In this document: positions 757 through 46,341 of the stretch, one piece after another
Numbering within the stretch: position 1 is the first letter of the stretch
Layout of the letters: each line of letters begins with the position of its first letter
IMG/VR virus record: IMGVR_UViG_3300033145_000155
DNA: 49,010 bases
Strand: one strand, 5' to 3'
Source: a virus
Notes under the pieces: model-generated
The model's database searches: none
Seen by the model: only the letters and a program-made list of their open reading frames with translations
Told to the model about the DNA's origin: nothing
Position numbers and translations under genes: made by a program

Positions 757-1008
757 ATGTCATCATCATTACCAGTAGCAGAAACAGATGTAAACACGAT
801 TAGGGATCTTATTATTGGAAACATAGATATTGCACGAGGGATAAGAACAAAGTCTGAAAGGCTACACTGTGGAATATCAAAAGAAGATGTATCTGATAAA
901 CCAGATGTGGCAAATAAGCTAGTTGGTCAAGAGCTTATTGATAGACTGTATGAAATGCGGACGATTCTCAATGAAGCTGATGAAGCACTCACTGGATTCA
1001 ATGGATAA
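757..1008 (+). CDS. hypothetical protein (83 aa)
   Basis: ORF with AAAGGAGG SD upstream. Confidence 0.7.
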   Translation: MSSSLPVAETDVNTIRDLIIGNIDIARGIRTKSERLHCGISKEDVSDKPDVANKLVGQELIDRLYEMRTILNEADEALTGFNG

Positions 1009-1032
1009 GATCGTTTTATAATTAAACAAACT
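1008..1032. repeat. 25-nt palindromic element (PE25) copy 1
   Basis: AGATCGTTT-TATAATT-AAACAAACT, followed by CTTAAAGAAAGGAGG. Confidence 0.8.
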
Positions 1033-1075
1033 TAAAGAAAGGAGGTTAAACTAACGGTAGAGGGAAAGTAACTAT

Positions 1076-1096
1076 TAACAACTAACAACTAACAAC
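1076..1096. repeat. Tandem heptamer TAACAAC x3 in the leader of the 1119 gene
   Basis: Read directly: TAACAAC at 1076, 1083 and 1090. Confidence 0.8.
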
Positions 1097-1118
1097 AAAC
1101 TTTAAGGAGGCATAAAAA

Positions 1119-1538
1119 ATGTCATTAACAGATTATTCAAATCTTGAAAAAGAAATTACCGATGCACCAGAGCCAAAGACTTTACCCCGAGGTACTGAGG
1201 TAAAAGCACGCATCATTGCTATGCGTGAAGGTATCAGTGAAAAGAACGATGCACAGTGGTACATGCCTGTGTTTGACATTCCTAAAGAACCCCTCGCAAT
1301 GGAGTTCAATGATTTCTTCTGGGACCTAGCAGATCGTGATAAGCTGGATGAAAAATCAGCTTCTCGTTCATTCAGGAAATTCAAACTCTTTGCTGAAGCT
1401 TTTGGCATTGACTACTCCAAACCGTTTAGCTGGACAGAGGACTTGATTGGCCTGGAAGGTTGGGTCATTCTTGGTGTGAAGAAAAGCGACGAGTATGGAG
1501 ATCAGAACACTGTGTCAAAATATGTAGCAGGTAGGTAG
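1119..1538 (+). CDS. hypothetical protein, possibly a DUF669-like ssDNA-binding partner of Sak4
   Basis: 139 aa, sits directly after the Sak4-like ATPase, SD AAGGAGG. The family assignment is from memory of the sequence pattern only. Confidence 0.4.
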   Translation: MSLTDYSNLEKEITDAPEPKTLPRGTEVKARIIAMREGISEKNDAQWYMPVFDIPKEPLAMEFNDFFWDLADRDKLDEKSASRSFRKFKLFAEAFGIDYSKPFSWTEDLIGLEGWVILGVKKSDEYGDQNTVSKYVAGR

Positions 1539-1585
1539 CTACATCATTGCTAAGGCGGCATTTATTAACTAGCAACATATTGTAT

Positions 1586-1611
1586 GGGGAGCGCCGCCCT
1601 CCCCTTTATTT
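1586..1611 (+). terminator. Rho-independent terminator candidate
   Basis: GGGGAG-cgccgcc-CTCCCC followed by TTTATTT. Confidence 0.6.
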
Positions 1612-1630
1612 AACAACAAGGAGATAAACT

Positions 1631-1942
1631 ATGAACAACGATAAATTTATGTTAGTAACAGAAAAGAGTATTGCTAGGAGTAACAAACTCTTGGATCGCA
1701 AGGGTTTGGTTTACACTGTCAACGACGACCGCTTGATTAACTTCAAACAAGTAGGTGCAATAGAACTTAAGTCACCTACCGAATCCCTCATGTCTATGAT
1801 GAATAAGCATGTAGCAGCAGCTTCATCAATGGTGAAGGAGCCCACTAAATACACACGCAAGCATTGGAATAGTGTGCTTGATGATATACGGAATTACACT
1901 ATCCTTCTCGATGCGCTGTTGATAGACATGGGGATTGAGTGA
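1631..1942 (+). CDS. hypothetical protein (103 aa), possibly DUF1599-like
   Basis: SD AAGGAG. The C-terminal pattern DDIRNYTILLDALL resembles DUF1599. The call is weak. Confidence 0.3.
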   Translation: MNNDKFMLVTEKSIARSNKLLDRKGLVYTVNDDRLINFKQVGAIELKSPTESLMSMMNKHVAAASSMVKEPTKYTRKHWNSVLDDIRNYTILLDALLIDMGIE

Positions 1943-2583
1943 TGACATGTAAAAATTGCGGTACTAATAGGCCAGGAGATATTATAAAGGTAACCTCAGA
2001 CTTAATGCATTGTGCAGTATGTGGAGAGAAAGTAGATCCTTATAAAAGATATGTTAAGGTAGATAGTAACTGGGACAGATACTTTCACTCCATTTGTGAA
2101 TCGGTTGCTTCCAAGTCACCTTGCCTATCCCGCAAAATAGGTGCTATCCTCGTGAGGGATCATAGTATTGTAAGTACGGGGTACAATGGTCCTCCACGAG
2201 GAATACCTCATTGCGGCCATGATAGATATATGAATGATGATACCTTATATGCTCTTATACAGAGCCCTCAAAAATTTCAACCTCATAGAATAAGAAATGA
2301 ATGTCCTCGCAAAATCCTTGGCTATGCCTCAGGTACTCACATGGAACTATGTCTTGCTCAACATGCAGAGGAAAACACTGTATCAAATGCTGCTCGTTTA
2401 GGTGTGTCAATTATTGGCACTACACTTTATATGAACTCAGTAATCCCTTGTAAAAACTGCTTTGGTACTTTAATTAATGCAGGGATTGTAGAAATAGTAG
2501 TAGATGAAGTAACTGTCTATGATAAACATACACAGTTCCTCATCAACAATTCAGTTATTAAATTAAGGAGGTTTGAACTATGA
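1942..2583 (+). CDS. dCMP (deoxycytidylate) deaminase with an N-terminal CxxC...CxxC zinc ribbon
   Basis: HAEENTVSNAA and PCKNC zinc-binding motifs of the cytidine/dCMP deaminase fold. The ATG at 1942 overlaps the upstream TGA. Confidence 0.85.
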   Translation: MTCKNCGTNRPGDIIKVTSDLMHCAVCGEKVDPYKRYVKVDSNWDRYFHSICESVASKSPCLSRKIGAILVRDHSIVSTGYNGPPRGIPHCGHDRYMNDDTLYALIQSPQKFQPHRIRNECPRKILGYASGTHMELCLAQHAEENTVSNAARLGVSIIGTTLYMNSVIPCKNCFGTLINAGIVEIVVDEVTVYDKHTQFLINNSVIKLRRFEL

Positions 2584-2753
2584 TAAGACACTACTTAAAA
2601 ATAACTCCAGCTATCCCCATTAAGGATAGACATAAAATAGAAAAATTAATAACAAAGATGGGATATGTATTTATAGGAGGAGGAACATCTAATGTCAAAG
2701 AAGTCCTCTTTGAAGATACCTTTTCTGATATATCATTTGAGGAGAAAGAATGA
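2580..2753 (+). CDS. small hypothetical protein (57 aa, below the ORF-track cutoff)
   Basis: ATGA start/stop overlap with the deaminase gene. Fills an otherwise empty 216-nt gap. Confidence 0.4.
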   Translation: MIRHYLKITPAIPIKDRHKIEKLITKMGYVFIGGGTSNVKEVLFEDTFSDISFEEKE

Positions 2754-2762
2754 AGTTGAATA

Positions 2763-2787
2763 AGTTCGTTTTATAATAAAACAATCT
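2763..2787. repeat. PE25 copy 2
   Basis: AGTTCGTTT-TATAATA-AAACAATCT, immediately followed by GGAG (the SD of the 2800 gene). The 31-mer 2761-2791 is identical to 39627-39657. Confidence 0.85.
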
Positions 2788-2799
2788 GGAGATGAGATT

Positions 2800-3078
2800 A
2801 TGAAAATTCTATACACAGCTATGGAAGGAGGTTATTGGTTACCTCTAAATATTGATCAGTCCATTGAACAATTAAAGGAATATTGTGAGCTAAATAAGAA
2901 AACAGGGATAGATACTCACAATAGAATACTGATAAACGGAGGAGGGATTAACTGTGTATATGCAGCAGCTATTATGTTTTCAGATGGTACTATCTGGGAT
3001 GATATAATCTGTGACTATGATAAGGTAGACCCAAAATTATTTGACAGTATCTTACGGAGGTATAACTATGAACGATGA
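2800..3078 (+). CDS. hypothetical protein (92 aa)
   Basis: ORF with an SD supplied by the PE25 flank. Confidence 0.7.
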   Translation: MKILYTAMEGGYWLPLNIDQSIEQLKEYCELNKKTGIDTHNRILINGGGINCVYAAAIMFSDGTIWDDIICDYDKVDPKLFDSILRRYNYER

Positions 3079-3310
3079 ATATAGGCCTAGGTTTAGTTTT
3101 GAAGTTACCTATGAGCAAAAACAGCGTGCTGATAAGATTCTCGCTACCTATGGTTTACGTAAAGCTATATTTGGCTATATCCTCGATGATGTCTTAAACA
3201 TGATTGAGGAGTATGGTGGCGTAGCTATAGGCGTGATGATGAGTGGGAAGCTTAAACCTCGGGATGTCATACCAACTATGAAAAGGGCTGAGGAGGCTGG
3301 AAAGAAATGA
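3068..3310 (+). CDS. hypothetical protein, possibly a ribbon-helix-helix DNA binder
   Basis: Start moved to the ATG at 3068 (SD GGAGG 8 nt upstream). The N-terminal PRFSFEVTYEQKQRADKI looks like a beta-strand followed by a helix. Confidence 0.5.
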   Translation: MNDEYRPRFSFEVTYEQKQRADKILATYGLRKAIFGYILDDVLNMIEEYGGVAIGVMMSGKLKPRDVIPTMKRAEEAGKK

Positions 3311-3579
3311 ACCATAGAGATTTAGGCAGGGTATCAATATCAAGTGAGATGATTCTTAATCATCCTGAACAGGTTGCTGAAGTCTTCGCACTCTTAAAGT
3401 TTATACCTATTCATGCTGAGCATAAGCTATACAATAATGATATTGAGTATGTAGCATTGTCTGAGCGTTTTGAAGAAGTCCAAACCGGATGTATAATACC
3501 ATACTATCAGTTAAACATTACACAAGATAAATGTGGGAAAGTAAATCTGGTTGAAGTAGAACAAGTAGATAACATCTAA
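3307..3579 (+). CDS. hypothetical protein (90 aa)
   Basis: ATGA overlap with the upstream gene. Confidence 0.65.
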   Translation: MNHRDLGRVSISSEMILNHPEQVAEVFALLKFIPIHAEHKLYNNDIEYVALSERFEEVQTGCIIPYYQLNITQDKCGKVNLVEVEQVDNI

Positions 3580-3595
3580 ATATTTGGAGGTAATG

Positions 3596-3796
3596 ATGGC
3601 AAACTTAGACGATCTTAATTATCCTTCTATATCTGACATGTCTGCTGATGAGGGCATTGAACTCCTTCGCCAGATTCGATTAAGTCGTAGGATTCCAGTG
3701 AAGAAGGTAAGCACTACAACAAAGACTAACCCAAAGAAAACTTCAAACATCAGTGCTGAAGCGGCTGCTGAATTACTTAAGATTTTAGGAGGATAA
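3596..3796 (+). CDS. hypothetical protein (66 aa)
   Basis: ATG 5 nt after GGAGG. The track start at 3584 is a TTG inside the SD. Confidence 0.6.
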   Translation: MANLDDLNYPSISDMSADEGIELLRQIRLSRRIPVKKVSTTTKTNPKKTSNISAEAAAELLKILGG

Positions 3797-3799
3797 ACA

Positions 3800-5116
3800 A
3801 TGACAATTGAAGTAGGTATTGTAGGAATGATTCCAATCGAATCAATAGTTGTCTCAGACAGAGCTCGAGAGGTAATGGGAGATCTTAATGGACTAGAAGA
3901 CAACATGAAGGAAACTGGACTAATCTCACCACTCGCTGTCAAAGACAATGGCAATGGAATTTATAAACTTCTCGCTGGTGAACGTAGGTTTAACATACTT
4001 AAAAAGAACAAGGTTAAGGAAATCCCTGTTCGTATATATAACAAAACCTTATCTGAAATCGAGATGAAGATCATTGAGAAATCTGAAAACTTCTTCCGTA
4101 AAGATATGGAGTTCTGGGAGTTTGATAAACTCACCTTTGAAATCCATGAGATGCAGCAATCTATCCATGGTGTCAAAGCTCCAGGCCCTGGACAGGAAGG
4201 ATGGTCAACTGAAGACACTGGTGATATGATAGGTGGTGTGTCCAAAGCTACTGTGTCTCAATCTATTAAACGAGCTGAAGCACGTGAAGCCTTTCCTGAA
4301 CTATTTGATAATTGTAAGACCGCAGCTGATGCGACTAAGGTACTTAAGAAAGTTGATGAAGCCTTGATTAAACAAGCCATTGCACAAAAGCTTGAAGCGC
4401 AAAAGCCTTCTGGTACTCTTGGTCAATTATCAAAGTGCTACATCCTCAAGGATTTCTTTGAAGGTGTTAAGGAAATCCCTGATGGTATAATGCACTTGGT
4501 TGAGATAGATCCTCCATATGCTATTGAGCTAGGTAAGGCAAAGAAAGTTGAAGGGGAATCTCAATATCAATTAGATGACTATAGCGAAATTGATAAAGAC
4601 ACATATCCAGAATTCCTTTCCAATTTACTCAGTGAAACTTATCGAGTCATGGCTGAGCACTCTTGGCTTATCTTCTGGTTTGCTCCCGAGCCTTGGTTTG
4701 ATTTAGTTTATAAAGCTATCATAGAAACAGGCTTTGACTCAACAAGAATGTGCGGTATCTGGACTAAGCCTTCTGGTCAGTCCAAGCGTCCGGAGATGCA
4801 CTTGGCAAATAGTTATGAAATGTTCTTCTACGCATGGAAGGGTCGTCCAGCGCTGAACAAAGCTGGAAGATCAAACATATTTCAATATTCTCCAGTGCCT
4901 GCAATCCAGAAGACACACCCAACTGAACGTCCAATAGAATTAACAACTGACATTTATGATACCTTTGCTTTTCCAGGGTCTCGTATCTTAATCCCATTCC
5001 TCGGTTCAGGCAATGGATTGATTAGTGCACATCAACTGGGAATGTCTGCAGTAGGATTTGAACTAGGAAAAGGTCATAGAGACTCGTTCTTGGTTAAGGT
5101 TAACGAGATGAAATGA
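3800..5116 (+). CDS. ParB-like N-terminal domain fused to a beta-class N6A/N4C DNA methyltransferase
   Basis: ParB box LLAGERRF. Motif IV is EIDPPYA, followed later by motif I IPFLGSGNG. This order (IV before I) defines the beta class. Confidence 0.85.
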   Translation: MTIEVGIVGMIPIESIVVSDRAREVMGDLNGLEDNMKETGLISPLAVKDNGNGIYKLLAGERRFNILKKNKVKEIPVRIYNKTLSEIEMKIIEKSENFFRKDMEFWEFDKLTFEIHEMQQSIHGVKAPGPGQEGWSTEDTGDMIGGVSKATVSQSIKRAEAREAFPELFDNCKTAADATKVLKKVDEALIKQAIAQKLEAQKPSGTLGQLSKCYILKDFFEGVKEIPDGIMHLVEIDPPYAIELGKAKKVEGESQYQLDDYSEIDKDTYPEFLSNLLSETYRVMAEHSWLIFWFAPEPWFDLVYKAIIETGFDSTRMCGIWTKPSGQSKRPEMHLANSYEMFFYAWKGRPALNKAGRSNIFQYSPVPAIQKTHPTERPIELTTDIYDTFAFPGSRILIPFLGSGNGLISAHQLGMSAVGFELGKGHRDSFLVKVNEMK

Positions 5117-5277
5117 GACTATTATTATACATACTTTTAATCTTATGCCTTATACTAGGCATATTATTAATCATCAACTGCTTCATACCATTTGGCATAG
5201 GTGTTCTAGTCTTTGGCTATTGTATAATAAAAGTGCTTTATGAAACAGACCGTTTTATAATAAAACGATCTGAATAA
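5113..5277 (+). CDS. small hydrophobic protein (54 aa), uncertain
   Basis: ATGA overlap with the methylase stop. Predicted sequence is MRLLLYILLILCLILGILLIINCFIPFGIGVLVFGYCII... The 3' end consists of a PE25 copy, so it may not be coding. Confidence 0.35.
   Translation: MRLLLYILLILCLILGILLIINCFIPFGIGVLVFGYCIIKVLYETDRFIIKRSE
5247..5271. repeat. PE25 copy 3
   Basis: AGACCGTTT-TATAATA-AAACGATCT, 17 nt upstream of the polymerase ATG. Confidence 0.85.
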
Positions 5278-5288
5278 AAGGAGATAAA

Positions 5289-7799
5289 ATGAGAAGGACT
5301 TACGTACCTCCATCAGGAAACAAAGATGCTAAATTAGCAGGAGTTGGCGAACAGCCTGGCATGGAAGAGATTCGTTCACGGCCACCCAAACCTTTTGTTG
5401 GCCCTGCTGGACGTGGATTAGAAGAATGTCTTCAGATGACTAAAATAGTGCGCCGTGATCTTTACTTAACCAACGTAATCAAAGACCTTGACGCACCTCT
5501 CAAACATTACATAGACCTCGACAATCGTGGGAATCCAACTATCCACCCCGAAGGCTATCAATACATCCAGGAGCTTGCCGAGGAACTTAAATCCCTAAAC
5601 CTCAACGCCGTAATAGCCTTTGGCAACATTGCTTTACTCGCACTTACAAACCGTGTAGGGATAACCAAGTGGCGTGGGTCTGTCCTTGAATCTACCATTG
5701 TTCCTGGGCTTAAAGTAATCCCTACATTCCACCCTGCCACCTTCATCCCACCAAAGTTCAACTTCCTCAACAGACCTTTGATCTGCGAAGATTTACTCCA
5801 AGCTAAATATGAATCTGAGTTTAAAGAAATAGTTCGCCAACCTCGTGATATAACTGTCAGGCCCACATTTAATGAATCAGTTGATGTGTTAAACTATTGT
5901 TATGAAGCTGGACTGCGTGGCCAGACAATAGGTATTGATATTGAAGTTATCAATGGCGAGGTTGATTGTATATCTTTTGGATGGAACTCTGCTAACTCTA
6001 TCTCAATCCCCTTTCGTTATCAGCAAGGGGATTATTTCAATGTAGATCAAGAATTAGAAATAATGTTGCTTATCTCAAAGATTATCCAAGAGCCTCGGAT
6101 TACCAAGTGTGGTGCTAACTTCATATTTGATACACAGTTTATGTTTCACAAGTATGGCATTGTCCCTCGTGGTATATTACACTGTACACAGATTGCACAG
6201 AAGATTTCCTATCCAGACTTTCCTGCTGGACTAGACTTCGTAACCAACATGCATACAGACATCCCTTACTATAAACAAGATGGTAAACAATGGATGAAGA
6301 TGCAAGCTGGCACCTGGGAGCAATGGTGGAACTATAATGGCATGGACGCTATTGTTCCTGTTGAGGCTATACCTAAACAATTAAAGGTGCTTGAACACCA
6401 AGGTAACATTGAAACTTACGAACGTCAACGTAAGTTAATCAAACCTTTAATCTATATGTCCGAGCGTGGTATTAAACTTGATGTCCAAGGTATGATGGAA
6501 TACAAGGATGAACAACAGGCTGAGTTAGACATCCTCGCCGAAAATCTTAACAAGGAAGTAGGTTATGATATTAACTATAACTCGCCTAAGCAACTAATGG
6601 ACTACTTTTACAAAGAGTTAAAAATCAAACCTTATAAAAAGCGCAATGCTCAAGGTCAGTATAATAACTCAATAGATGTTGATGCACTCAAACGTATATC
6701 AAGGCAAGGTTATAAAGCAGCTCAGACCATGCTAGACATTCGTGGTCTTAGCAAGCGTATTTCAACTTATTTAAACATAGGAAAGGTGGATAAAGATGGA
6801 AGATATAGAAGTTCGTATAAGCCCGTTGGAGCTGAAACAGGAAGGCTCTCATCGGGTGAAACTATCTTTGGAACTGGAGGTAATCAGCAAAACTGGCCAC
6901 ACGATTTACTTCGATTTTTCCTCTTTGATGAAGGATATATCGGATACTCTTTCGATCTTAGTCAAATCGAAAATAGAATTGTGGCGTATGTTGGTGGAGT
7001 CCTCCCACAAATCGAAGCCTTTGGACAAGGAATAGACCTTCATCGTCTTACTGCTTCAATCATCTTCAACAAACCTTACGATCAAATTTCAGGTGAAGAT
7101 GGTTCTTCTGAACTTGGTGATGGTAGACAGTCCGAACGCTATTGGGGTAAGAAAGGTAATCACGCAATCAACTATGACATCGGCTATAAGAAATTTGCTC
7201 TTGTCAATGAGATGAATGAAACCGAGGCAAAGCAAGTTCTCGAAACAGTCCATCGTGGGTATCCTCAAATTCGAGGCGGTTATCAGATAATCATTCAAAA
7301 CATGCTTAAGAAAAATAGAATGGTTACAAACTTATACGGTCGTAATAGGTTATTCCTCGGCCCTATTATTCCATCCTATCCTGGCGTGCCAAAGGGTGCA
7401 TGTGAGAGTACATTCCGAGATGCTTATGCACATCTTCCACAATCAACTTGTGCTGACAAGATCAATGAACAAGGTATTGAATACATCTATTACAATCAAG
7501 ATTTATTCAAATACATTGAACTCCTTGCTCAGATACATGACTCGATTGTGTTTCAAGTTCCTTTGTCAATTCCCTGGGAAGAACATGCTAGGATGTTATT
7601 ACTAATTAAGCAATCGCTTGAACAGCCTATTTATTGGCATGGGACAGAGATTAAAACTCCATGTGATTTATCTATTGGTAAGTGTATGTGTAAGGACATG
7701 ATGATAGAATTGAAAAGTAAGGAAATTCCATCTGATAATGACTCATTAGCAACCAAACTAAAAATTATCTACAACACAATTAAAAATAATGGAAACTAA
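5289..7799 (+). CDS. Family A DNA polymerase with an N-terminal UDG-family-4-like domain and a 3'-5' exonuclease region
   Basis: UDG-like motifs GEQPGMEE...FVGPAGRGL and FHPATF. Pol motif A DLSQIENRIVA, motif B-like KKGNHAINYDIGY, motif C QIHDSIVF. Confidence 0.85.
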   Translation: MRRTYVPPSGNKDAKLAGVGEQPGMEEIRSRPPKPFVGPAGRGLEECLQMTKIVRRDLYLTNVIKDLDAPLKHYIDLDNRGNPTIHPEGYQYIQELAEELKSLNLNAVIAFGNIALLALTNRVGITKWRGSVLESTIVPGLKVIPTFHPATFIPPKFNFLNRPLICEDLLQAKYESEFKEIVRQPRDITVRPTFNESVDVLNYCYEAGLRGQTIGIDIEVINGEVDCISFGWNSANSISIPFRYQQGDYFNVDQELEIMLLISKIIQEPRITKCGANFIFDTQFMFHKYGIVPRGILHCTQIAQKISYPDFPAGLDFVTNMHTDIPYYKQDGKQWMKMQAGTWEQWWNYNGMDAIVPVEAIPKQLKVLEHQGNIETYERQRKLIKPLIYMSERGIKLDVQGMMEYKDEQQAELDILAENLNKEVGYDINYNSPKQLMDYFYKELKIKPYKKRNAQGQYNNSIDVDALKRISRQGYKAAQTMLDIRGLSKRISTYLNIGKVDKDGRYRSSYKPVGAETGRLSSGETIFGTGGNQQNWPHDLLRFFLFDEGYIGYSFDLSQIENRIVAYVGGVLPQIEAFGQGIDLHRLTASIIFNKPYDQISGEDGSSELGDGRQSERYWGKKGNHAINYDIGYKKFALVNEMNETEAKQVLETVHRGYPQIRGGYQIIIQNMLKKNRMVTNLYGRNRLFLGPIIPSYPGVPKGACESTFRDAYAHLPQSTCADKINEQGIEYIYYNQDLFKYIELLAQIHDSIVFQVPLSIPWEEHARMLLLIKQSLEQPIYWHGTEIKTPCDLSIGKCMCKDMMIELKSKEIPSDNDSLATKLKIIYNTIKNNGN

Positions 7800-7802
7800 A
7801 AT

Positions 7803-8996
7803 ATGCCTAATAATAGAAATCTCCCCGACTGGTTGGATAGTTTCATGCTCCTCACAGAGAACTCCGAGCCTCCATTACTCTTCCGTAAGTGGACTGCTAT
7901 TTCCGCTATTGCTTCCGCTTTGCAAAGAAAGGTTAGAGTGGAGCTTGGACTATCCCTTACTTTTTATCCTAATTTATACATAGTCCTTGTCGGCCCAAGT
8001 GCTACCGGCAAGGGTACAGCAATGAAGTATGCTTCAGACATTATTGAACAGGTTCCCTCAATTCGTCTAAGTGCTCAAGCTACTTCGCTTCAAGCTCTTA
8101 TTCGCCGAATGAAGGAGACTAACCTAACCGACATTGACTTGGCTACAGGTGACCAACAGTACCATTCATCGCTTACTATTTTCTCCACCGAATTTACTGT
8201 ATTCTTAGGTTATCATAACAAGGAATTAATTTCCGCTCTTTGTGAATGGTATGACTGTCATGAACGGTGGAGTTATGAAACCATAGCAAGGAAAAAGGAA
8301 GAGGTCATTGGAGTCTGGGTTAACATCCTTGCAGGGACAACTCCTGATGCCATTCAAAGTTCACTACCTATTGAATCCATAGGAGGTGGTCTAACTTCCC
8401 GCATCATCTTTGTGTATGAAGAGAAGAGGGAAAAGTTAGTCATCTTTCCTACGAAAACAGATGAAGAAATCCAGCTTCAACAAATGCTAATTAATGATCT
8501 GGAACAAATAAGTATGCTGTCTGGAAAGATGGAATATGGTTCTGACTTTGCTGAAGCTTACTCTGCATGGTGTTATAATGCAGATGAGAATCCTCCCTTT
8601 TATGATCCAAAGTTTGATGGTTACTGTGGTCGGCGAAGGAATCATTTAATATCCTTGTCAATGATCTGTTGTGCAAGTAGAACCGACAGCATGATTATGA
8701 CAGCTGAGGATCTTGCAAGGGCTTCTGAATTCTTACTTGGAGCGGAAGTTAAAATGGGCAAGGTTTTCAGAGGTATGGGCAAAAGTGATATCTCATCTTT
8801 GATCAATGATGCTATTGTGTTCATTGAGAATTCAATTACTAAGGAAATCCCTGTTTGGCAATTTGCTAGACAGTTCGAAGGTAACATGGATAAGTTTATT
8901 ATGGACAGAGTTTTGTTTACATTGGAGGCTAGCAATTATATTAAGATAGTGAAAAGGCCTGGGACTGACACTTTGATAACCATATTAGATCGTTAA
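7803..8996 (+). CDS. P-loop NTPase, possibly a DUF3987-like replicative helicase or primase-associated protein
   Basis: Walker A VGPSATGKGT. Sits directly after the polymerase. The family guess is from memory only. Confidence 0.45.
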   Translation: MPNNRNLPDWLDSFMLLTENSEPPLLFRKWTAISAIASALQRKVRVELGLSLTFYPNLYIVLVGPSATGKGTAMKYASDIIEQVPSIRLSAQATSLQALIRRMKETNLTDIDLATGDQQYHSSLTIFSTEFTVFLGYHNKELISALCEWYDCHERWSYETIARKKEEVIGVWVNILAGTTPDAIQSSLPIESIGGGLTSRIIFVYEEKREKLVIFPTKTDEEIQLQQMLINDLEQISMLSGKMEYGSDFAEAYSAWCYNADENPPFYDPKFDGYCGRRRNHLISLSMICCASRTDSMIMTAEDLARASEFLLGAEVKMGKVFRGMGKSDISSLINDAIVFIENSITKEIPVWQFARQFEGNMDKFIMDRVLFTLEASNYIKIVKRPGTDTLITILDR

Positions 8997-9011
8997 ATTG
9001 TTAAACGATCT
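8987..9011. repeat. PE25 copy 4, at a convergent gene junction
   Basis: AGATCGTTA-AATTGTT-AAACGATCT. Overlaps the stop codons of both convergent genes. The 23-mer 8992-9014 is identical to 16783-16805. Confidence 0.85.
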
Positions 9012-37961: not shown

Positions 37962-37998
37962 AAGGGCAGTGGTTTAATTATCACTGCCCTTTCTTTTT
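37962..37998 (+). terminator. Rho-independent terminator
   Basis: AAGGGCAGTG, 10-nt loop, CACTGCCCTT, then TCTTTTT. Confidence 0.8.
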
Positions 37999-38504
37999 GC
38001 CAACATTCTATGTTGTTATACTTGGAACGTTGGACTTGGAACATAGCATTAAATAACTCTCTTTGTATCTACACTTGGAACACCTAACCATTAACCGCTG
38101 AACGTAACCTAAACCTTAACCTTAGGATGCAGTAGTGCATTCCAGCTAACATCTCCAGTTCGTTCAATGATAAAACGATCTGTTTGATGTTCAACTTGGA
38201 TTAAATACACTGAATTGTACATTGACATGAGGGTGTAGTTGTGTTAATGTATGTTTGTATTTATGTTTGTATGTAAATGTGTATCCTACAGATAATATAT
38301 AACCGTGGAATACATAAAACGATCTAAGGCATACATCTATAAATAATAATAAGTAATATATATATATACTATATATAAAGATATATATTAAAGAAGAAGG
38401 AGGACTAAGATCGTTTAATGGTTTTTGGTTTGGACATATCATCTGTAGGATACGGATTTACATGGTTACAAGGCTACATGATTACAAATGATTAGGAGGT
38501 AGAT
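37999..38504. other. Repeat-dense non-coding region; candidate replication origin or other cis-acting DNA site
   Basis: Contains iteron-like ACTTGGAAC x3 (+1 variant), a TAACC-rich tract, a PE25 copy, tandem 12-mers, nested inverted repeats around a (TA)n core, and TACATGRTTACAA x2. Confidence 0.5.
38157..38181. repeat. PE25 copy 16
   Basis: AGTTCGTTC-AATGATA-AAACGATCT. Confidence 0.7.
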
Positions 38505-38705: not shown

Positions 38706-39406
38706 ATAGAGAAATTAAGCAAGAGAGTAGTATGCCTGTGCAGTCAAGAGTGAGTATAATTGACTTAGCAAACTTAGATATGTATTGGACTGATACAGGG
38801 TATAGTGTTAAGACTATGAGTCAGTTAGTATCATGGAGTATGAGTTTGCTATATGAAGTGTTAGCGTCTAATAATTGCATAAAGGCACGTATTGATAGAG
38901 TAGATGATGCTAATAGGTATTTAGAGAGTAGAGGACTGTATCAGAGAAGTATGAGGGAGAAGGGATTTAAGAAGTTAGGAGCAGCTATTAAAATGGAAGT
39001 TATTAGGGATGAAAGAGGAAATGTTAAGGATGTACTACCAAGAGAGCATAACATACTACATAATAAGCGTAGCGTTAATAGTTTTGATGGTAGGATATTT
39101 AGCGGAGAGATTGAGAGAATGACTAAGATATATGAAGATAGTGAACCAAAGAAGGAAGCAATAAGTGAAGAGTCAAGGAAAGCTACTATGCAAGCAGTTG
39201 CAGACCGTATGAAGCGTGAGGACGAGGGTGAAAGTGAGGATATGAGCAAAAGCAAACTATCCAGCGAAACCTTAGTTGGTGAGAAAATGACTGGTGAGCA
39301 AGCAGAGAATAAAATGAAGGAGATTAAATTAAAAGATAAGGAAAGGGTTGAGGCAGAGAAGAGTTTGAACTTCAAGGATTTGATGAAAGGTGTGAGAAAT
39401 GAGTAA
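38702..39406 (+). CDS. hypothetical protein (234 aa), K/E-rich C-terminal half
   Basis: ATGA overlap, SD GGAG. Confidence 0.7.
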   Translation: MNREIKQESSMPVQSRVSIIDLANLDMYWTDTGYSVKTMSQLVSWSMSLLYEVLASNNCIKARIDRVDDANRYLESRGLYQRSMREKGFKKLGAAIKMEVIRDERGNVKDVLPREHNILHNKRSVNSFDGRIFSGEIERMTKIYEDSEPKKEAISEESRKATMQAVADRMKREDEGESEDMSKSKLSSETLVGEKMTGEQAENKMKEIKLKDKERVEAEKSLNFKDLMKGVRNE

Positions 39407-39629
39407 GATATTTATTGTAGCAGGTAACTATAAACAAACGAAAGAATATGCTATATGTAAAGGTATTAAATATAGTAGGTTCGTCTATGTTAATGAAATG
39501 TATAAGATGCAAGGTATAAGAAAAGGAAAGTTAATATTTACTGGATCATGGGATAGAAGACCCAATTTTAATATAGATGAAATTTTACTATATGCTAAGT
39601 ATATGCAATTTAACATTGTATATGATTAA
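39399..39629 (+). CDS. hypothetical protein (76 aa)
   Basis: Overlapping start, in the operon. Confidence 0.65.
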   Translation: MSKIFIVAGNYKQTKEYAICKGIKYSRFVYVNEMYKMQGIRKGKLIFTGSWDRRPNFNIDEILLYAKYMQFNIVYD

Positions 39630-39653
39630 GTTCGTTTTATAATAAAACAATCT
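39629..39653. repeat. PE25 copy 17
   Basis: AGTTCGTTT-TATAATA-AAACAATCT then GGAGG. Identical 31-mer to the copy at 2761. Confidence 0.85.
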
Positions 39654-40997: not shown

Positions 40998-41022
40998 AGT
41001 TTGTTCAATCATTAAACAATCT
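40998..41022. repeat. PE25 copy 18
   Basis: AGTTTGTTC-AATCATT-AAACAATCT, followed by TAAAGAAAGGAGG as in copy 1. Confidence 0.7.
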
Positions 41023-43011: not shown

Positions 43012-43026
43012 GTAAGTAAAACTAAG

Positions 43027-43058
43027 ACCTCCTGGTGTAAAGCCAGGAGGTTCTTTTT
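43027..43058 (+). terminator. Rho-independent terminator
   Basis: ACCTCCTGG, 7-nt loop, CCAGGAGGT, then TCTTTTT. Confidence 0.8.
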
Positions 43059-43096: not shown

Positions 43097-43143
43097 AGTT
43101 TGTTTAATGATTAAACGATCTTTAATATTAAACGATCTTTAAT
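43097..43143. repeat. PE25 copy 19 plus a tandem duplication of its right arm
   Basis: AGTTTGTTT-AATGATT-AAACGATCT (43097-43121). The 17-mer ATTAAACGATCTTTAAT occurs twice in tandem (43110-43126 and 43127-43143). Confidence 0.8.
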
Positions 43144-43145
43144 AT

Positions 43146-43244
43146 AGTGATAGCGGTACAGCGGTAATGTACCTGCGCAACTCATCAGCGCATAAAGGGG
43201 TGTAGATTAGATTTACCGTATCGGTGAGAATCCGGTCTATCACT
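43146..43244 (+). ncRNA. non-canonical class-II tRNA-like cloverleaf (identity unassignable)
   Basis: 7-8-bp acceptor stem, 4-bp D stem (the loop has A14, GG and A21 equivalents), 5-bp anticodon stem with the 9-nt loop AACTCATCA, 6-bp variable-arm hairpin, and a 5-bp T stem abutting the acceptor 3' strand. The T loop is TGAGAAT, not TTCRANY, and position 8 is C. Confidence 0.35.
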
Positions 43245-43251
43245 TTAATAT

Positions 43252-43353
43252 GACGGGAGTGGCAACTATAGTAACCCTAAGGATTTAATCCTTGCAGAGC
43301 AGATAGTGTGAAAGTCACTCAAAATACTAATACACAAGATTCTGCCTCCCGTC
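43252..43353 (+). ncRNA. second structured RNA candidate in the same leader
   Basis: The 8-bp closing stem GACGGGAG/CTCCCGTC encloses the hairpin AAGGAT-tta-ATCCTT and the stem GCAGA/TCTGC. Confidence 0.3.
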
Positions 43354-43961: not shown

Positions 43962-43989
43962 TATAATATAATGAAAGGAGCAAAAGCAA

Positions 43990-44229
43990 ATGAAAGCAAT
44001 AAAAAGAACGAAACAACCTACTTTAAAACAAATGCAGAACATGGCATCTAATCTTCAAGAGAAGTATGGTCTATATTCAAGTATTCAAATAGACTCCCAC
44101 AAATTTTCATCTAATCATGCACAGACAGAATATTGGATTTCAGTTCAAACAGTATGTGGGCAATTTCTTAAATCTTGGGAAGCAGTCCTTGATAAATATG
44201 AAGAATTAATGGAGGACAAAGATGCCTAA
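43990..44229 (+). CDS. hypothetical protein (79 aa)
   Basis: SD AAGGAG. Confidence 0.7.
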   Translation: MKAIKRTKQPTLKQMQNMASNLQEKYGLYSSIQIDSHKFSSNHAQTEYWISVQTVCGQFLKSWEAVLDKYEELMEDKDA

Positions 44230-45076
44230 ATACCAGCGTTGGAAAAATATCATGAAGTGTTATCCTTTTGAGGAAAAGCGCTTAGCTAAATGGCATCCTC
44301 CTTACATATGTCAACCTAAGTTCGACGGTGTAAGATGTCGAGCTATCCCATTGCAGACTGGACCTAAAGGTAATGAATACTTACTTGTCTCCAGTGAAGA
44401 AAACATCATCTATTCAGTACCTCACATAAATGAAGAATTAAGCGGATTTGAGTTAAAGGATGAACTAGATGGTGAACTCTACTTCCACGGTATGAGTTTT
44501 GAGGAAATCCTTTCAATCACCTCACGCACTGTAAACTTGCATATAGACTATCGCATGATGAAGTTTCACATCTTCGACATTGTAAATGAAGAACCTCAAA
44601 TGCAAAGGATATTGAAGTTGGAAGAACTACGTGGGTTAAGCCGTGTGCTACCTATTGCGCCATTCTGGCTAGCTGAATCATTAGATGAAGTCAAACATAT
44701 ATATGATAAGTTAATAGCATTAAAATATGAAGGGATTATAATAAGACACTTTCAAAATATCTATGAATGTAAGCGTTCAACTTACATGATGAAATTTAAA
44801 CCTAAAAAGAAAGATGAATATAAAATCATTGGATGGAAGGAGGAAATTTCAAAGGATGGAATACCTAAAGGCCGTATAGGTTCACTTATTATGTCTTCAC
44901 AAGAAGATGAAGAATTTAGTGTAAGTGCTGGGCTTGATGGAGATGAAAAGGATAGACTGTGGAACATTAGGAACTTATTAAGCGGTAAAAGTGCCATAGT
45001 CCACTATCAGCACTTAACTGATAAAAAAATACCTAAAGGAACTTTCAATGTGGAGGTAATTGAAGATGGAATTTGA
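44222..45076 (+). CDS. ATP-dependent DNA ligase
   Basis: Motif I PKFDGVR (KxDG), motif III ELDGELY, motif IV EGIIIR, motif V MMKFKPKK. Confidence 0.85.
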   Translation: MPKYQRWKNIMKCYPFEEKRLAKWHPPYICQPKFDGVRCRAIPLQTGPKGNEYLLVSSEENIIYSVPHINEELSGFELKDELDGELYFHGMSFEEILSITSRTVNLHIDYRMMKFHIFDIVNEEPQMQRILKLEELRGLSRVLPIAPFWLAESLDEVKHIYDKLIALKYEGIIIRHFQNIYECKRSTYMMKFKPKKKDEYKIIGWKEEISKDGIPKGRIGSLIMSSQEDEEFSVSAGLDGDEKDRLWNIRNLLSGKSAIVHYQHLTDKKIPKGTFNVEVIEDGI

Positions 45077-45347
45077 TGGTACTGAGTATAATCCTATATG
45101 TGAGGATATACCTACAAAAAATGAAATGACAATAGATAAAAAAGTATTAGATGTATTCTATGCTCATGGAAAAATGTTAAAATTGCATGCTGATGCTCTT
45201 GCTTGCCACTATGAATGTCTTGGGATGAACGCTGAGAATTCATTAGCTGTATGTCAAGATAGAGTAATACCTTATTCTAATAATGACTATCTCAACGTCA
45301 TGATGAAGTGGAGACTTGTTGACGAGAATAATGAGTCAATAATTTAA
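45066..45347 (+). CDS. hypothetical protein (93 aa)
   Basis: Start moved to ATG (MEFDG) with GGAGG 9 nt upstream. Confidence 0.6.
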   Translation: MEFDGTEYNPICEDIPTKNEMTIDKKVLDVFYAHGKMLKLHADALACHYECLGMNAENSLAVCQDRVIPYSNNDYLNVMMKWRLVDENNESII

Positions 45348-45366
45348 CTATCTAAGGAGGTAAAAA

Positions 45367-45534
45367 ATGGATTATGAAGAAGCTATTGAATGGCTGAATG
45401 GTAAGAGGTCTATGACGAACACTGTTCCACAAGAGCCTTGGGAAACATGGGAAGTACGGATAGCACAAGCAGATGCTGCTATGGTTCAACAAGCATACTG
45501 GATTGTTAAGGCACATAAAGAAGGATTAATATAA
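45367..45534 (+). CDS. small hypothetical protein (55 aa)
   Basis: SD AAGGAGG. Below the track cutoff. Confidence 0.55.
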   Translation: MDYEEAIEWLNGKRSMTNTVPQEPWETWEVRIAQADAAMVQQAYWIVKAHKEGLI

Positions 45535-45559
45535 ACTAAACTAAAGGAGGAGAAGAAAG

Positions 45560-45961
45560 ATGTTAGAACAAAAAGAATTTTACATTGCAGGAGTGAAGTT
45601 TCATAAATTGGCTACAGTAATTAACAAGTTGAGAATAGGGATACGGCTTACCCTAACACCTGAACCAACTAACAGATTCGATCCTAATGCTGTTAAGATT
45701 GAATACCATGATTTTGATGAACTTGTTATGCTTGGCTACGTACCAAAGAAATTCAGCTCAGAGATAAGTGCAAGATTTGACATAGACCTTAACTTTGAAT
45801 GTGTAATCACTGAACTCAATCCAGGAGCTAAACCTTGGGAGCAGTGCAAAGTTGTAATAAGGGATATTAATGAAGATGACAAATGTGATCCTGTGTTTGA
45901 GCCAGCTGACCCTGACGTAGGTGATGGTCCTGACTTTGATTCAGAATGTAAGGAGGAATAA
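45560..45961 (+). CDS. HIRAN-domain protein
   Basis: FYIAGVKFH...LTLTPEPTNRFDPNAVKIEY. Confidence 0.65.
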   Translation: MLEQKEFYIAGVKFHKLATVINKLRIGIRLTLTPEPTNRFDPNAVKIEYHDFDELVMLGYVPKKFSSEISARFDIDLNFECVITELNPGAKPWEQCKVVIRDINEDDKCDPVFEPADPDVGDGPDFDSECKEE

Positions 45962-45963
45962 TT

Positions 45964-46341
45964 ATGAGGTATGTATATTGTGCTAATTGCGGCACCCGCT
46001 TATCAATCATGAGAAAGGCTATGCCTAAGTATGGCAAGATAATCGACATTGTAGAATATCACGAGTGTCCTGATGAGCCTATCGAGATTAACCTCGAACC
46101 TGTTGACATTCCTAATTTTATTGAAACTAAGGATAAGAACAAGTTCGTTCAACAATTAAACGATCTCCAACCACCTTCAATTTTAAGTTCAATAGGTTCA
46201 GATCTTAAAGATAAACGTAAAACAGAGAATGTTAAAGGCCCTAACTTATCCTCGGCGCCAACTGGCTTGAGTGACTTAATAGACTCAATGCAGAATTCAA
46301 TCCCAGAGGGTGACATAGGAAAGGAACCTAATGATGCCTAA
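45964..46341 (+). CDS. hypothetical zinc-ribbon-like protein (125 aa)
   Basis: CANC...HEC. Contains an in-frame PE25 copy. Confidence 0.65.
   Translation: MRYVYCANCGTRLSIMRKAMPKYGKIIDIVEYHECPDEPIEINLEPVDIPNFIETKDKNKFVQQLNDLQPPSILSSIGSDLKDKRKTENVKGPNLSSAPTGLSDLIDSMQNSIPEGDIGKEPNDA
46142..46166. repeat. PE25 copy 20 (intragenic)
   Basis: AGTTCGTTC-AACAATT-AAACGATCT. Confidence 0.7.

Follow-up and report, generated by a model that had tools for sequence, protein, structure and literature searches.

The question raised by this locus is what function is served by a 25-nt palindromic element, PE25, that recurs about 20 times along a single phage genome. The window, that is the whole stretch of viral DNA analysed here (49,010 nucleotides, IMG/VR record IMGVR_UViG_3300033145_000155), had been the subject of a preliminary description, which listed 20 full copies with a 9-7-9 arrangement of arms and spacer and put forward four roles: operators of a phage DNA-binding protein, mobile cassettes of REP or PeSL type, RNA processing or stability hairpins, and a strand-polar DNA signal. 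Overall, this list of roles was partly supported.

The 20-copy family proved genuine. Nineteen matches to AGATCGTTT-N7-AAACGATCT with at most three mismatches recovered the listed starts exactly, versus 0.04 expected from 100 dinucleotide shuffles, and the 20th copy, at 40998, carried four mismatches. Exact occurrences of AAACGATCT in the window numbered 20 versus 0.37 expected, including 38317 (+), 38408 (-) and a duplicated arm at 43130. The 9-7-9 architecture had to be abandoned: since spacer positions 10-11 (AA) and 15-16 (TT) were also conserved family-wide, the family-wide unit is an 11-3-11 palindrome, AGATCGTTTAA-N3-TTAAACGATCT. GATC was ordinary in this genome (138 observed versus 170-210 expected). 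The copies and half-sites were distributed as follows, with strand indicated where one was assigned.

1008-1032: intergenic copy, 2 mismatches; its first base is the final stop-codon base of 757-1008, and TAAAGAAAGGAGG comes after it
2763-2787: intergenic copy, 2 mismatches; GGAG immediately 3', ATG of 2800-3078 12 nt on; homology to relative L111 (95 % identical) stops at 2792
5247-5271: copy upstream of the UDG-PolA gene, 1 mismatch; PolA ATG 17 nt on; palindrome present at this junction in 63 % of 92 relatives
8987-9011: copy at the convergent junction of both gene blocks, 1 mismatch; covers the stops of 7803-8996 (+) and 9011-14746 (-); junction occupied in 50 % of 60 relatives
11795-11819: in-frame copy within the giant ORF (residues 964-972), downstream edge of a cassette, 0 mismatches
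12626-12650: in-frame copy within the giant ORF (residues 687-695), upstream edge of the same cassette, 1 mismatch
14648-14672: copy where 14694-15812 meets the giant ORF, 1 mismatch; in frame at about codons 13-21 of the longest ORF, 9011-14746
16778-16802: intergenic copy among minus-strand genes, 3 mismatches; ATG of 15825-16763 14 nt on; junction occupied in 43 % of 63 relatives
20920-20944: copy 3' of the major capsid gene, 1 mismatch; comes after a terminator-like hairpin (20989-20973); ATG of 20182-20904 15 nt on
22345-22369: copy 5' of the major capsid gene, 2 mismatches; ATG 23 nt on; junction occupied in 52 % of 80 relatives by lineage-specific variants
23644-23668: intergenic copy, 2 mismatches; GGAGG immediately 3', ATG 13 nt on
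28480-28504: intergenic copy, 1 mismatch; ATG of 26696-28468 11 nt on
32904-32928: copy in the final codons of ORF 32886-34532 (stop at 32886-32888), 1 mismatch; homology to relative L112 stops at 32870
35002-35026: copy abutting the ATG of 34525-35001, 2 mismatches; homology to L112 stops at 35038
37046-37070: copy close to where the minus-strand block begins, 1 mismatch; differs from its L112 orthologue at 6 or more positions despite 91 % identical flanks
38157-38181: copy in the divergent control region, 2 mismatches; flanked by ACTTGGAAC repeats and an AT-rich tract
38317-38325, plus strand: lone half-site AAACGATCT, exact match; no partner arm found at the expected spacing
38408-38416, minus strand: lone half-site (AGATCGTTT on the plus strand), exact match; no partner arm found at the expected spacing
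39629-39653: intergenic copy, 2 mismatches; its first base is the final stop base of 39399-39629, ATG 11 nt on; identical to copy 2763 across 31 nt
40998-41022: intergenic copy, the most degenerate, 4 mismatches; ATG 20 nt on
43097-43121: copy 45 nt after a GC-rich canonical terminator (43026-43052), 2 mismatches
43130-43138, plus strand: duplicated right arm in a 17-nt direct repeat, ATTAAACGATCTTTAAT, exact match
46142-46166: in-frame copy within the zinc-ribbon gene 45964-46341, 2 mismatches; peptide KFVQQLNDL

PE25 typically filled the space separating a stop codon from the next Shine-Dalgarno site, and Shine-Dalgarno sequence and start codon lay 11-23 nt downstream of 10 window copies. 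This placement, already pointed out in the preliminary description, held for most copies; five (11795, 12626, 14648, 32904 and 46142) were not intergenic. Shared flanks, adjacency to GGAG and the copy at the convergent junction, also noted there, were all seen in the window sequence. A function of PE25 as terminator was rejected, as canonical GC-rich terminators were present separately.

Approximately 200 related contigs from IMG/VR, Logan and ENA displayed PE25 at matching gene junctions, and 202 copies were counted in the 1 Mb surrounding the capsid gene of 80 relatives. Window junctions were occupied in 30-63 % of relatives versus 0-7 % for five tightly packed control junctions, and occupancy differed even among close relatives. 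Bacterial genomes rich in PE25 were not found, and host genomes yielded no copies. The core was homogeneous inside a genome and different between lineages (GTTTAA, ATTAAA, CATTAA, ATTTAA and others). The AG...CT ends of the element were invariant and each lineage-specific consensus was still two-fold symmetric; the centres of the conserved blocks GTTT and AAAC are separated by 11 bp. Distant relatives displayed other palindromes of the same architecture. PE25 is a real repeat family, found in lineage-specific versions throughout a phage clade.

Symmetry is a property of the consensus and not of the single copy. Swapping 3' arms within genome and orientation left the number of pairs equal or raised it (1273 observed versus 1311 +/- 11), and window copies displayed 83.7 % paired positions versus 83.1 % after shuffling. 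Half-sites were shown to evolve independently toward one genome-specific consensus.

Two ParB-domain proteins had been proposed as candidate readers of the element. A ParB domain was found in just one of them, the product of 3800-5116; the other, encoded by 19822-20181, gave no Pfam hit. The features of the proposed reader are the following.

3800-5116, plus strand: ParB-CTPase fold, helix-turn-helix and N6/N4 DNA methyltransferase in one protein
4196-4291, plus strand: residues 133-164, the helix-turn-helix in the ParB-like module; its recognition helix begins at K149

The product matched Pfam ParB_N (1.8e-8) and N6_N4_Mtase (9e-14) as well as the NCBIfam models Noc and ParB. Its GERR box and the box III residues E93, E96, N97, F98, R100 and K101 were invariant, and box I was recognised from the consensus. 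In a structure model, helices at 137-143 and 149-164 formed the helix-turn-helix, and with Foldseek about 200 N-terminal residues superposed on truncated Noc, the Noc-NBS complex and ParB, the C-terminal part matching CcrM, RsrI and MboIIA. The protein was thereby shown to combine a complete ParB/Noc-type N-terminal domain and DNA-binding domain with a beta-class N6/N4 DNA methyltransferase. It lacked the canonical C-terminal dimerisation domain, and no ParA partner was found in the phage. Relatives with few or zero PE25 copies still encoded the fusion protein with its helix-turn-helix intact.

Four residues determine the specificity of ParB and Noc, and they include the beginning of the recognition helix (PMC7383237). 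Of the 18 alignment columns that tell ATTAAA-type genomes from GTTTAA-type ones, 8 fell in residues 136-154 of the phage protein. Helices starting with SK(A/G)x were paired with G at position 6, TDAS with TTAAA, TQGA with CATTAA and TQPA with TATAAA; these associations were counted without phylogenetic correction, and some groups (e.g. the CATTAA genomes) may be single clades. Five genomes (L243, L259, L274, L219 and L236) had the backbone of the ATTAAA group, yet displayed K149 together with G6 cores.

For a prospective check, seven contigs were picked by helix sequence alone; six were new and one, L334, was the same contig as L195. A prediction was stated for the K, D and Q helices only. SK was accompanied by G6 in 8 of 8 cases, and TQGA by CATTAA in 13 of 24 half-sites. 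TDAS came with [A/G]TTAAA; position 9 was A in 18 of 24 half-sites, which fits the TTAAA core, but position 6 was mixed. Overall, the new contigs agreed with the helix-core pattern. Among the purely descriptive cases, the ST helix gave ATTTAA versus GTTTAA 5 to 5, the TPKT helix a new core, ATTTAA, in 9 copies, and the KSP helix just about 3 copies in 21 kb. Since G and A were each retained at position 6 in D149-type genomes, a simple match of residue 149 to base 6 accounts for just some of the code. As far as comparison of genomes can tell, lineages that differ in the consensus core were shown to differ in parallel at the opening residues of the recognition helix.

On this correlative evidence, the most probable reading, at moderate confidence, is that PE25 is a double-stranded DNA recognition site, similar to parS, NBS or OB, for the 3800-5116 fusion protein. 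The operator role suggested earlier is hence favoured for this protein, by its ParB/Noc domain and the helix-core co-variation, and not for the second ParB candidate.

An operator could also belong to a different two-fold-symmetric phage protein, PE25 then acting in global regulation or as a roadblock like stoperators or ESAS, and the ParB helix co-variation reflecting shared ancestry only. We regard this as rather unlikely. Half-site independence and concerted evolution would suit any dimeric reader, and the divergent control region contains a full copy and two half-sites. One candidate is the zinc-ribbon protein (45964-46341), whose gene has a PE25 copy at the matching protein position in 28 relatives. 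These ORFs share just 25-56 % identity, and their palindrome-preserving codons (AAG 28/28, AAC 26/26, GTT 23/28 versus 35-48 % background use) indicate selection at the nucleotide level. The zinc-ribbon protein also differed most between ATTAAA-type and GTTTAA-type genomes, 22 % of its columns being discriminating, more than in the ParB fusion, but this compared 4 versus 11 sequences with a disordered, partly unalignable tail. Its zinc-ribbon residues displayed no consistent type-specific change, and it was also present in element-poor genomes. Searches of the phage gave no repressor, no integrase and no further helix-turn-helix regulator, and an RHH-like candidate (3068-3310) had a PRFSFEI strand unchanged across types.

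Unlikely, too, is that PE25 copies are recombination linkers or selfish palindromic repeats of PeSL or REP type, homogenised by gene conversion and spreading along with cassettes, with no dedicated reader. This reading draws on a cassette in the giant ORF, bracketed by the two in-frame copies 11795 and 12626.

11820-12625, minus strand: methyltransferase-like cassette, residues 739-957 matching PHROG 24333, DNA methyltransferase

Cassette residues 751-950 were present in only 5-9 of about 65 relatives having the flanking parts; where the cassette was missing, residue 689 was joined to residue 972-975, and insert size at this position varied from 4 bp to 2.5 kb. HSP ends were 3.5-fold enriched within 30 bp of PE25 copies, and 3 of 9 breakpoints against near-identical relatives lay within 35 nt of a copy, but PE25-bearing junctions were only modestly richer in breakpoints than the remaining junctions. 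The L041 copy upstream of the capsid gene resembled a chimera with the 28480 copy; together with the variable occupancy among close relatives and the Sak4-like annealing protein and PD-(D/E)XK nuclease encoded by the phage, this suits exchange. The REP or PeSL role was thus backed by the bracketed cassette and the breakpoint enrichment, but not in its other parts: neither a promoter part nor host-genome copies were found, and no transposase or RAYT-type gene was detected in the phage. Drift and conversion would also leave unexplained the two-fold symmetry with invariant AG...CT ends, the codon choice keeping the in-frame copy across divergent zinc-ribbon ORFs and the cores tracking the helix-turn-helix.

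It is quite improbable that PE25 folds into mRNA hairpins that serve processing or stability, or that insulate the ribosome-binding site downstream. Their position would be suitable, as 81 % of start codons lay 10-24 nt past a copy, one third of upstream stop codons overlapped copy positions 1-2, and the highly expressed capsid gene is flanked by copies. Compensatory pairing, however, was absent within genomes, and in gene orientation C.A and A.C mismatches exceeded G.U pairs (177 to 71 and 127 to 60). Sense-strand hairpins were systematically weaker than antisense ones (mean -4.2 versus -5.4 kcal/mol; weaker in 237 of 360 copies), pairs 3-23 and 5-21 were mismatched in about half of the copies, and one copy lies at the end point of two convergent genes.

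That the copies are promoters or activator sites to which a phage factor redirects the host RNA polymerase appears very improbable. Concerted lineage-specific change at many sites recalls phage-specific promoters, copies lie downstream of canonical terminators (20989-20973 and 43026-43052) and the centre of window copies is often TATAAT, but in relatives the centre is AAWWWTT. There was neither a conserved flank nor a -35 element at fixed distance, the leader would be shorter than 25 nt, some copies lie in frame within ORFs or where convergent genes meet, and neither an RNA polymerase nor a sigma factor could be detected in the phage.

A strand-polar signal for nicking, packaging or replication priming had been proposed from the arm counts, which were confirmed for the window: of its 20 copies, 13 have an exact right arm and 4 an exact left arm. 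LUZ24-like phages carry site-specific nicks, and the distant capsid relatives (about 24 % identity) include PaP2- and PaMx41-like Pseudomonas podophages. The claim that the asymmetry is irrespective of gene strand rested on only 7 plus-strand window copies (right exact in 3, left in 1) and failed in relatives, where left versus right exact arms numbered 18 versus 15 and 5 versus 7 among plus-strand genes and 20 versus 38 on the minus strand; as transition bias in gene orientation also had the same sign in both gene blocks and the site is two-fold symmetric, this reading is the least credible of all. The arm asymmetry of PE25 tracks gene direction and is not strand-polar.

If PE25 is indeed the site of the fusion protein, a dimer would occupy each copy, with one helix-turn-helix per half-site, and the approximately 20 sites may serve as loading points from which the protein, with its methyltransferase domain in tow, could spread or slide along the genome of the phage. 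They would be located at cistron boundaries because a fixed 25-bp sequence fits there with coding undisturbed; the arm on the ribosome-binding-site side would drift to A-rich, unpaired sequence because it also lies within the translation start region. Copies may have become boundaries of exchangeable cassettes because a recurring 25-mer permits recombination and gene conversion, a role that would be a side effect of PE25 recurrence. ParB-like methyltransferases, a common and unexplained class of phage enzymes, would thereby gain a testable DNA target. The proposal of loading and spreading is modelled on other ParB-family proteins, and Noc and KorB likewise have many palindromic sites dispersed along the replicon (PMC8429893, PMC12704722); the conserved PE25 site differs in covering 25 bp, versus 16 bp for parS.

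The window was found to be an uncultured tailed phage with a complete-looking genome of 49,010 bp, whose genes were arranged in three blocks:

1-9,000, plus strand: block 1, replication (Sak4-like annealing protein, dCMP deaminase, ParB-methyltransferase, UDG-PolA, DUF3987 primase-like protein)
9,011-37,500, minus strand: block 2, virion (1,911-residue protein, capsid, SU10-like portal, large terminase)
37,570 to end, plus strand: block 3, small early genes, ligase, HIRAN protein and PD-(D/E)XK nuclease

No DNA-level similarity to cultured phages was detected by megablast or blastn. The nearest named relative, Desulfofustis phage LS06-2018-MD01, displayed the same genome layout and identities of 50 % (capsid) and 48 % (PolA). 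Lysogeny genes, including repressor and integrase, were not detected in the window.

The 25-bp palindromic element PE25 had been listed at 20 starts in the preliminary description. Nineteen of these were matched with at most three mismatches (0.04 expected) and the 20th with four; the half-sites, the duplicated arm and the counts of exact arms (13 versus 4) were also borne out by sequence scan. The element was shared by relatives throughout a large phage clade: matching the exact pattern against IMG/VR gave at least 120 stretches carrying it, and 202 copies were counted in 1 Mb of loci fetched via the capsid protein, i.e. independently of the element. Since most copies carry two to three mismatches, a stricter palindrome count (at least 10 of 11 pairs) did not succeed in classifying genomes. 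Spacer positions 10-11 and 15-16 were conserved as well, and the unit is therefore AGATCGTTTAA-N3-TTAAACGATCT. No conserved sequence was found outside the 25-mer in the flanks of relatives' copies.

Copies were located at cistron boundaries, about every 2.4 kb in the window. The corresponding junctions were occupied by a palindrome in 30-63 % of relatives, against 0-7 % for five control junctions that are tightly packed. Of 360 unique co-directional copies, 79 % had a Shine-Dalgarno sequence and start codon at most 80 nt away, in 81 % of these 10-24 nt after the copy; the upstream stop codon overlapped PE25 positions 1-2 in one third of cases.

The sequence of the palindrome was specific to each lineage. 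At the junction upstream of the capsid gene, relatives carried AGATCGTTTAA..., AGATAATTAAA..., AGTTGATTCAA... and other versions, every one of them symmetric, and all copies inside one genome shared its variant. Distant relatives lacked PE25 and displayed palindromes of their own with the same build (CTTCGTTCAT-N3-ATGAACGAAG and AAGTTTCATTAA-N3-TTAATGAAACTT; in the Desulfofustis phage, CTATGTCCCAA-N-TTGGGACATAG). Some close relatives harbored almost no palindromes. Because the consensus itself is symmetric and all copies change together, a phage-encoded reader with two-fold symmetry is indicated.

Two ParB-domain proteins had been put forward as such readers. The product of 3800-5116(+) did contain a ParB domain; 19822-20181 gave no ParB match in Pfam and was dropped. 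The former is a fusion of ParB_N (Pfam, E = 1.8e-8) and an N6_N4 methyltransferase (residues 232-426), and its residues 20-107 matched TIGR00180 and the Noc model. Its GERR box was invariant (G60, R62 and R63 in 30 homologues), as were E93, E96, N97, F98, R100 and K101 of box III in the homologue alignment; box I was visible in the consensus. These are the conserved nucleotide-binding motifs; CTP binding and site-dependent loading or sliding of a clamp are putative. Sequence matches in the PDB were Noc, Spo0J and ParB. The structure model (pLDDT 74.5) placed a helix-turn-helix at helices 137-143 and 149-164. Foldseek aligned about 200-217 N-terminal columns to C-terminally truncated Noc and ParB, including the Noc-NBS complex, these constructs holding the N-terminal and DNA-binding domains; the C-terminal part matched CcrM-type methylases. 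By sequence only, the HTH_23 match was weak (E = 0.025), and a protein search with the 67-residue helix-turn-helix fragment returned no matches. The canonical C-terminal dimerisation domain was absent, with the methyltransferase in its place, and dimerisation may proceed through the methylase. No ParA, MinD or CbiA family match was encountered among the early and replication genes; a ParA partner is needed only for segregation systems.

Among homologues of known element type, eight of the 18 columns discriminating ATTAAA from GTTTAA genomes fell in residues 136-154. The start of the recognition helix was associated with the palindrome core as follows.

Start of the recognition helix and palindrome core in relatives
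SK(A/G)x: core with G at position 6 of the site
TDAS: core TTAAA
TQGA: core CATTAA
TQPA: core TATAAA

Five proteins with an ATTAAA-group backbone displayed K149, and their cores carried G at position 6 (G6); the link between helix and core is therefore not one deep split. Seven contigs were fetched by helix sequence, of which six were new (L334 was the same contig as L195), and predictions were stated beforehand for the K, D and Q helices only.

Palindrome cores of contigs fetched by helix sequence
TDAS (L329, L330): [A/G]TTAAA, position 6 mixed
TQGA (L331): CATTAA in 13/24 half-sites
SK (L335): position 6 = G in 8/8
ST (L334): ATTTAA versus GTTTAA, 5 to 5
TPKT (L333): ATTTAA, a new core, 9 copies
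KSP (L332): only about 3 copies in 21 kb

The palindrome sequence thus matched the specificity residues of the fusion protein, a correlative result whose statistic ignored kinship. K149, which we take to align with the first recognition-helix residue of ParB by motif alone (GKSRS... versus GVSKAT... in ParB), may be the counterpart of that residue. ParB and Noc owe their specificity to four residues, one of which opens the recognition helix (PMC7383237). On balance we lean slightly towards PE25 being a parS/NBS-like site array of this ParB-helix-turn-helix-methyltransferase fusion.

Element-poor relatives still encoded the fusion protein. In L204, L263, L332 and others, which have the helix (A/L)KSP(A/S/T)xV(V/T)(E/D), palindrome copies were few or absent; this would be explained by loss of the sites or by the helix reading a sequence that went undetected. 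The presence of replication-module genes, scored as homologues of window genes, did not differ significantly between element-rich and element-poor relatives. Two structural genes did differ in presence (p = 0.017, on 18 versus 4 loci), which we regard as noise. As alternative readers, the RHH-like protein 3068-3310 was rejected, its putative DNA-contacting strand PRFSFEI(T/S) being the same in GTTTAA, ATTAAA and GTTCAA types and PDB and NCBIfam giving no support, as was the helix-turn-helix protein 36315-36833, whose Desulfofustis-phage homologue carries a small-terminase annotation.

Of the other explanations, the mobile REP- or PeSL-like cassette had partial support: one clear cassette and breakpoints near copies were in its favor, and the absence of a promoter, a transposase and host copies stood against it. 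This cassette is the part of the giant protein (1,911 residues, 9011-14746(-)) encoded between the in-frame copies 11795 and 12626. Its methyltransferase-like residues 751-950 were present in 5-9 relatives and the flanking parts in 55-67. Insert-free relatives joined residue 689 to 972-975, and the in-frame copies of the window cover residues 687-695 and 964-972. As judged from the sequence, the canonical GTTTAA form is readable in one frame only, because the other two contain TAA. Homology to near-identical relatives stopped beside copies at 2792, 32870 and 35038, corresponding to three out of nine breakpoints. HSP ends were 3.5-fold enriched within 30 bp of copies, an enrichment that was modest over other junctions. 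Use of PE25 as a cassette seam was considered a side effect.

The middle of the giant protein, roughly residues 350-1000, was hypervariable, with inserts of 4 bp to 2.5 kb there in relatives. Residues 429-483 form a GNAT domain and residues 739-957 an N6/N4-methyltransferase-like one; the protein looks like a putative internal or ejected virion protein collecting enzyme cargo domains. Upstream of the capsid gene of L041, a 96.6 % identical relative, the copy at 3112-3136 differed from window copy 22345 at 4/25 positions, and over its first 20 nt it was identical to window copy 28480 read in reverse complement; this suggests that it may have arisen by gene conversion between copies.

A further in-frame copy was carried by 45964-46341(+), encoding a small zinc-ribbon protein (CxxCG...RKA.P..G.I.D...HxC) with a disordered tail, in which the copy encodes the conserved peptide KFVxxLN(D/E)L. 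Codons AAG (28/28), AAC (26/26) and GTT (23/28) were used there, against a background use of 35-48 %; the copy is kept through this choice of codons. The peptide persisted even in element-poor relatives, and this protein was the most different one between element types.

A role as hairpin was not upheld: the arms of one copy were under no selection for mutual pairing, and the sense hairpin was weak. Arm positions in the window were paired at 83.7 %, compared to 83.1 +/- 1.3 % after shuffling of 3' letters among copies. In relatives, 1273 pairs were observed versus 1311 +/- 11 with arms exchanged inside groups (62 groups of one genome and one orientation each, 236 copies). Observed pairing did not exceed that of exchanged arms; each arm is therefore held to the half-site consensus of its genome and not to its partner arm. 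In gene orientation, both gene blocks had more hairpin-breaking C.A/A.C mismatches than wobble pairs (177 to 71 and 127 to 60), and sense RNA folded worse than antisense (-4.15 versus -5.40 kcal/mol, Wilcoxon p = 3e-14). These results rule against selection for an RNA or single-strand hairpin.

A strand-polar DNA signal had also been listed as a possible role. The bias between the arms turned out to follow transcription and not the genome strand, with the same sign in both blocks; for plus-strand genes of relatives, exact left arms numbered 18 versus 15 right arms, and in the ligase set 5 versus 7. Its position next to the ribosome-binding site presumably makes the 3' arm drift toward A-rich sequence.

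The GATC tetranucleotide was rejected as the point of the element: it occurred 138 times genome-wide versus 170-210 expected, which was called neither depleted nor enriched, and was absent from ATTAAA, ATTTAA and CATTAA lineages. A sigma-70 promoter was discarded on account of unconserved flanks devoid of -35 or -10, the TATAAT centre being peculiar to the GTTTTA variant of the window. A canonical terminator was discarded likewise, PE25 lacking a GC-rich stem and U-tract on the transcribed strand; a terminator scan did flag PE25 in three cases, each time on the strand opposite to the genes. Canonical GC-rich hairpins with T-runs were located elsewhere (37961-37992, 43026-43052, 1586-1604 and 20989-20973), two of them with PE25 downstream. 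Finally, no known RNA family or tRNA was found for PE25, no Y1 (HUH) RAYT-type transposase domain, as in REP/BIME systems, in the window, no relevant match to the arm sequences in the literature, and no host repeat among 185,579 scanned species (one genome each), which yielded phage-like MAG contigs and isolated single matches only.

Public MAGs labelled Thorarchaeota, Bathyarchaeota and Brevinema contained near-identical relatives of the phage (P0002, P0107, L321-L328). Misbinning is the most likely cause, and these labels are therefore no reliable host guide.

Several other features of the window were recorded. In the DNA polymerase A at 5289-7799(+), the exonuclease and polymerase domains are preceded by a uracil-DNA-glycosylase-superfamily domain (residues 7-153), a fusion conserved in relatives. 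A lone plus-strand gene between divergent blocks, 37570-37926(+), has its own Shine-Dalgarno sequence and a strong intrinsic terminator (37961-37992); its 118-residue product was conserved in 13 loci and matched no family. Next to it, the non-coding region 38000-38500, where two gene blocks diverge, contained three ACTTGGAAC repeats (at about 38020, 38034 and 38074), TAACC-like repeats in a run, and 60 bp of pure A/T sequence (38340-38395) with a lone PE25 half-site on either side; from its appearance, the region may be an origin or serve early control. In the structural block, 18646-19152(-) has the appearance of an HNH-type endonuclease gene and is probably a mobile insertion, since it was present in just 19 related loci. 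About 200 nt of GC-richer non-coding sequence (43150-43350), preceded by a terminator and the PE25 copy with duplicated arm and followed by the gene at 43377, displayed long-range complementarity (GACGGGAG...CTCCCGTC) and may be a structured RNA; no Rfam family matched it.

As to function, a more speculative reading, given rather low credence, is that a DNA methyltransferase clamped by ParB and sliding along DNA would use the PE25 copies as loading sites in cis and mark the phage genome as self. The fusion protein would load solely on DNA carrying the phage's own palindromes and spread over the intervals of about 2.4 kb, methylating on the way, so that the phage genome would be tagged as self and the host genome not. 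Rapid joint change of helix and site would keep the marking of every phage private.

According to a survey, ParB-CTPase-methyltransferase fusions are among the commonest phage ParB-fold fusions and their role is open (PMC12704722); the PE25 array offers a candidate target. Natural specificity variants are at hand for such fusions (K149/G6 cores, TDAS/TTAAA, TQGA/CATTAA, TPKT/ATTTAA), and co-varying helix-site pairs could give orthogonal ParB/parS-type tools for DNA labelling or targeting. The sites may also act as seams where cassettes are exchanged, one case being enzyme domains inserted in frame into the 1,911-residue protein of the structural block. The present reading is also a possible idea for ESAS and other inverted repeats located at cistron boundaries, which are still unexplained.

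The ESAS of Cluster K mycobacteriophages resemble PE25 as imperfect inverted repeats just 5' of a subset of translation starts, borne by the same gene families in related phages and differing in position between subclusters (PMC3203893, PMC12699233). Their left repeat is nearer to consensus than the right (PMC3203893), as is the 5' arm of PE25. In contrast, ESAS arms are 17 bp long with a variable spacer of 4-13 bp, where PE25 has a fixed centre of 3 bp, and sequences and phages are unrelated. ESAS are moreover tied to a 13-bp SAS (GGGATAGGAGCCC) that includes the ribosome-binding site at the start codon, whereas the flank of PE25 is unconserved and its distance to the Shine-Dalgarno sequence varies from 10 to 24 nt.

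PeSL of T4-like phages are likewise short repeats at gene boundaries; they serve as exchange points for cassette insertions, deletions and replacements (PMC2839356, PMC4122927), a role that PE25 may share. They combine an early sigma-70-type promoter with a terminator-like stem-loop, whereas PE25 displayed neither promoter nor U-tract nor selection for pairing. Stoperators of temperate phages are 13-14 bp long, oriented with transcription and mostly located in short intergenic gaps, and co-evolve with their protein. Those of Cluster A mycobacteriophages are comparable to PE25 as numerous repressor sites distributed across a phage genome (PMC6550527, PMC9283540). They are asymmetric and read by a monomeric immunity repressor (PMC9283540), whereas PE25 is symmetric and neither repressor nor integrase was detected.

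ParB-parS, Noc-NBS and KorB-OB share with the present system a ParB CTPase fold with GERR box followed by a helix-turn-helix, and a palindromic cognate site, here a candidate one, in many copies on the own replicon; on plasmid RK2, for instance, KorB has about 12 OB sites through which it controls genes. Specificity, too, depends on a few positions where the recognition helix begins (PMC7383237). Noc has many NBS sites as nucleation points (PMC8429893), and KorB acts in a process other than DNA segregation (PMC12704722). ParB-type sites are, however, 13-16 bp long, compared to 25 bp (11-3-11) for PE25; a beta-class DNA methyltransferase replaces the C-terminal dimerisation domain; the search for a ParA partner was negative; the replicon is a phage without detected lysogeny genes; and the sites, spaced by about 2.4 kb at cistron boundaries, are not the same in close lineages. 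The domain architecture of 3800-5116 is that of the phage ParB-CTPase-N6/N4 methyltransferase fusions, described as enriched in phages and prophages with anti-defence as one suggested possibility; the available part of that survey names no DNA target (PMC12704722), whereas a candidate multi-copy target co-varying with the helix-turn-helix is encountered here. A ParB-family protein with many palindromic sites is thus known as a kind; the effector domain, site length, cistron-boundary placement, phage setting and rapid joint divergence are new.
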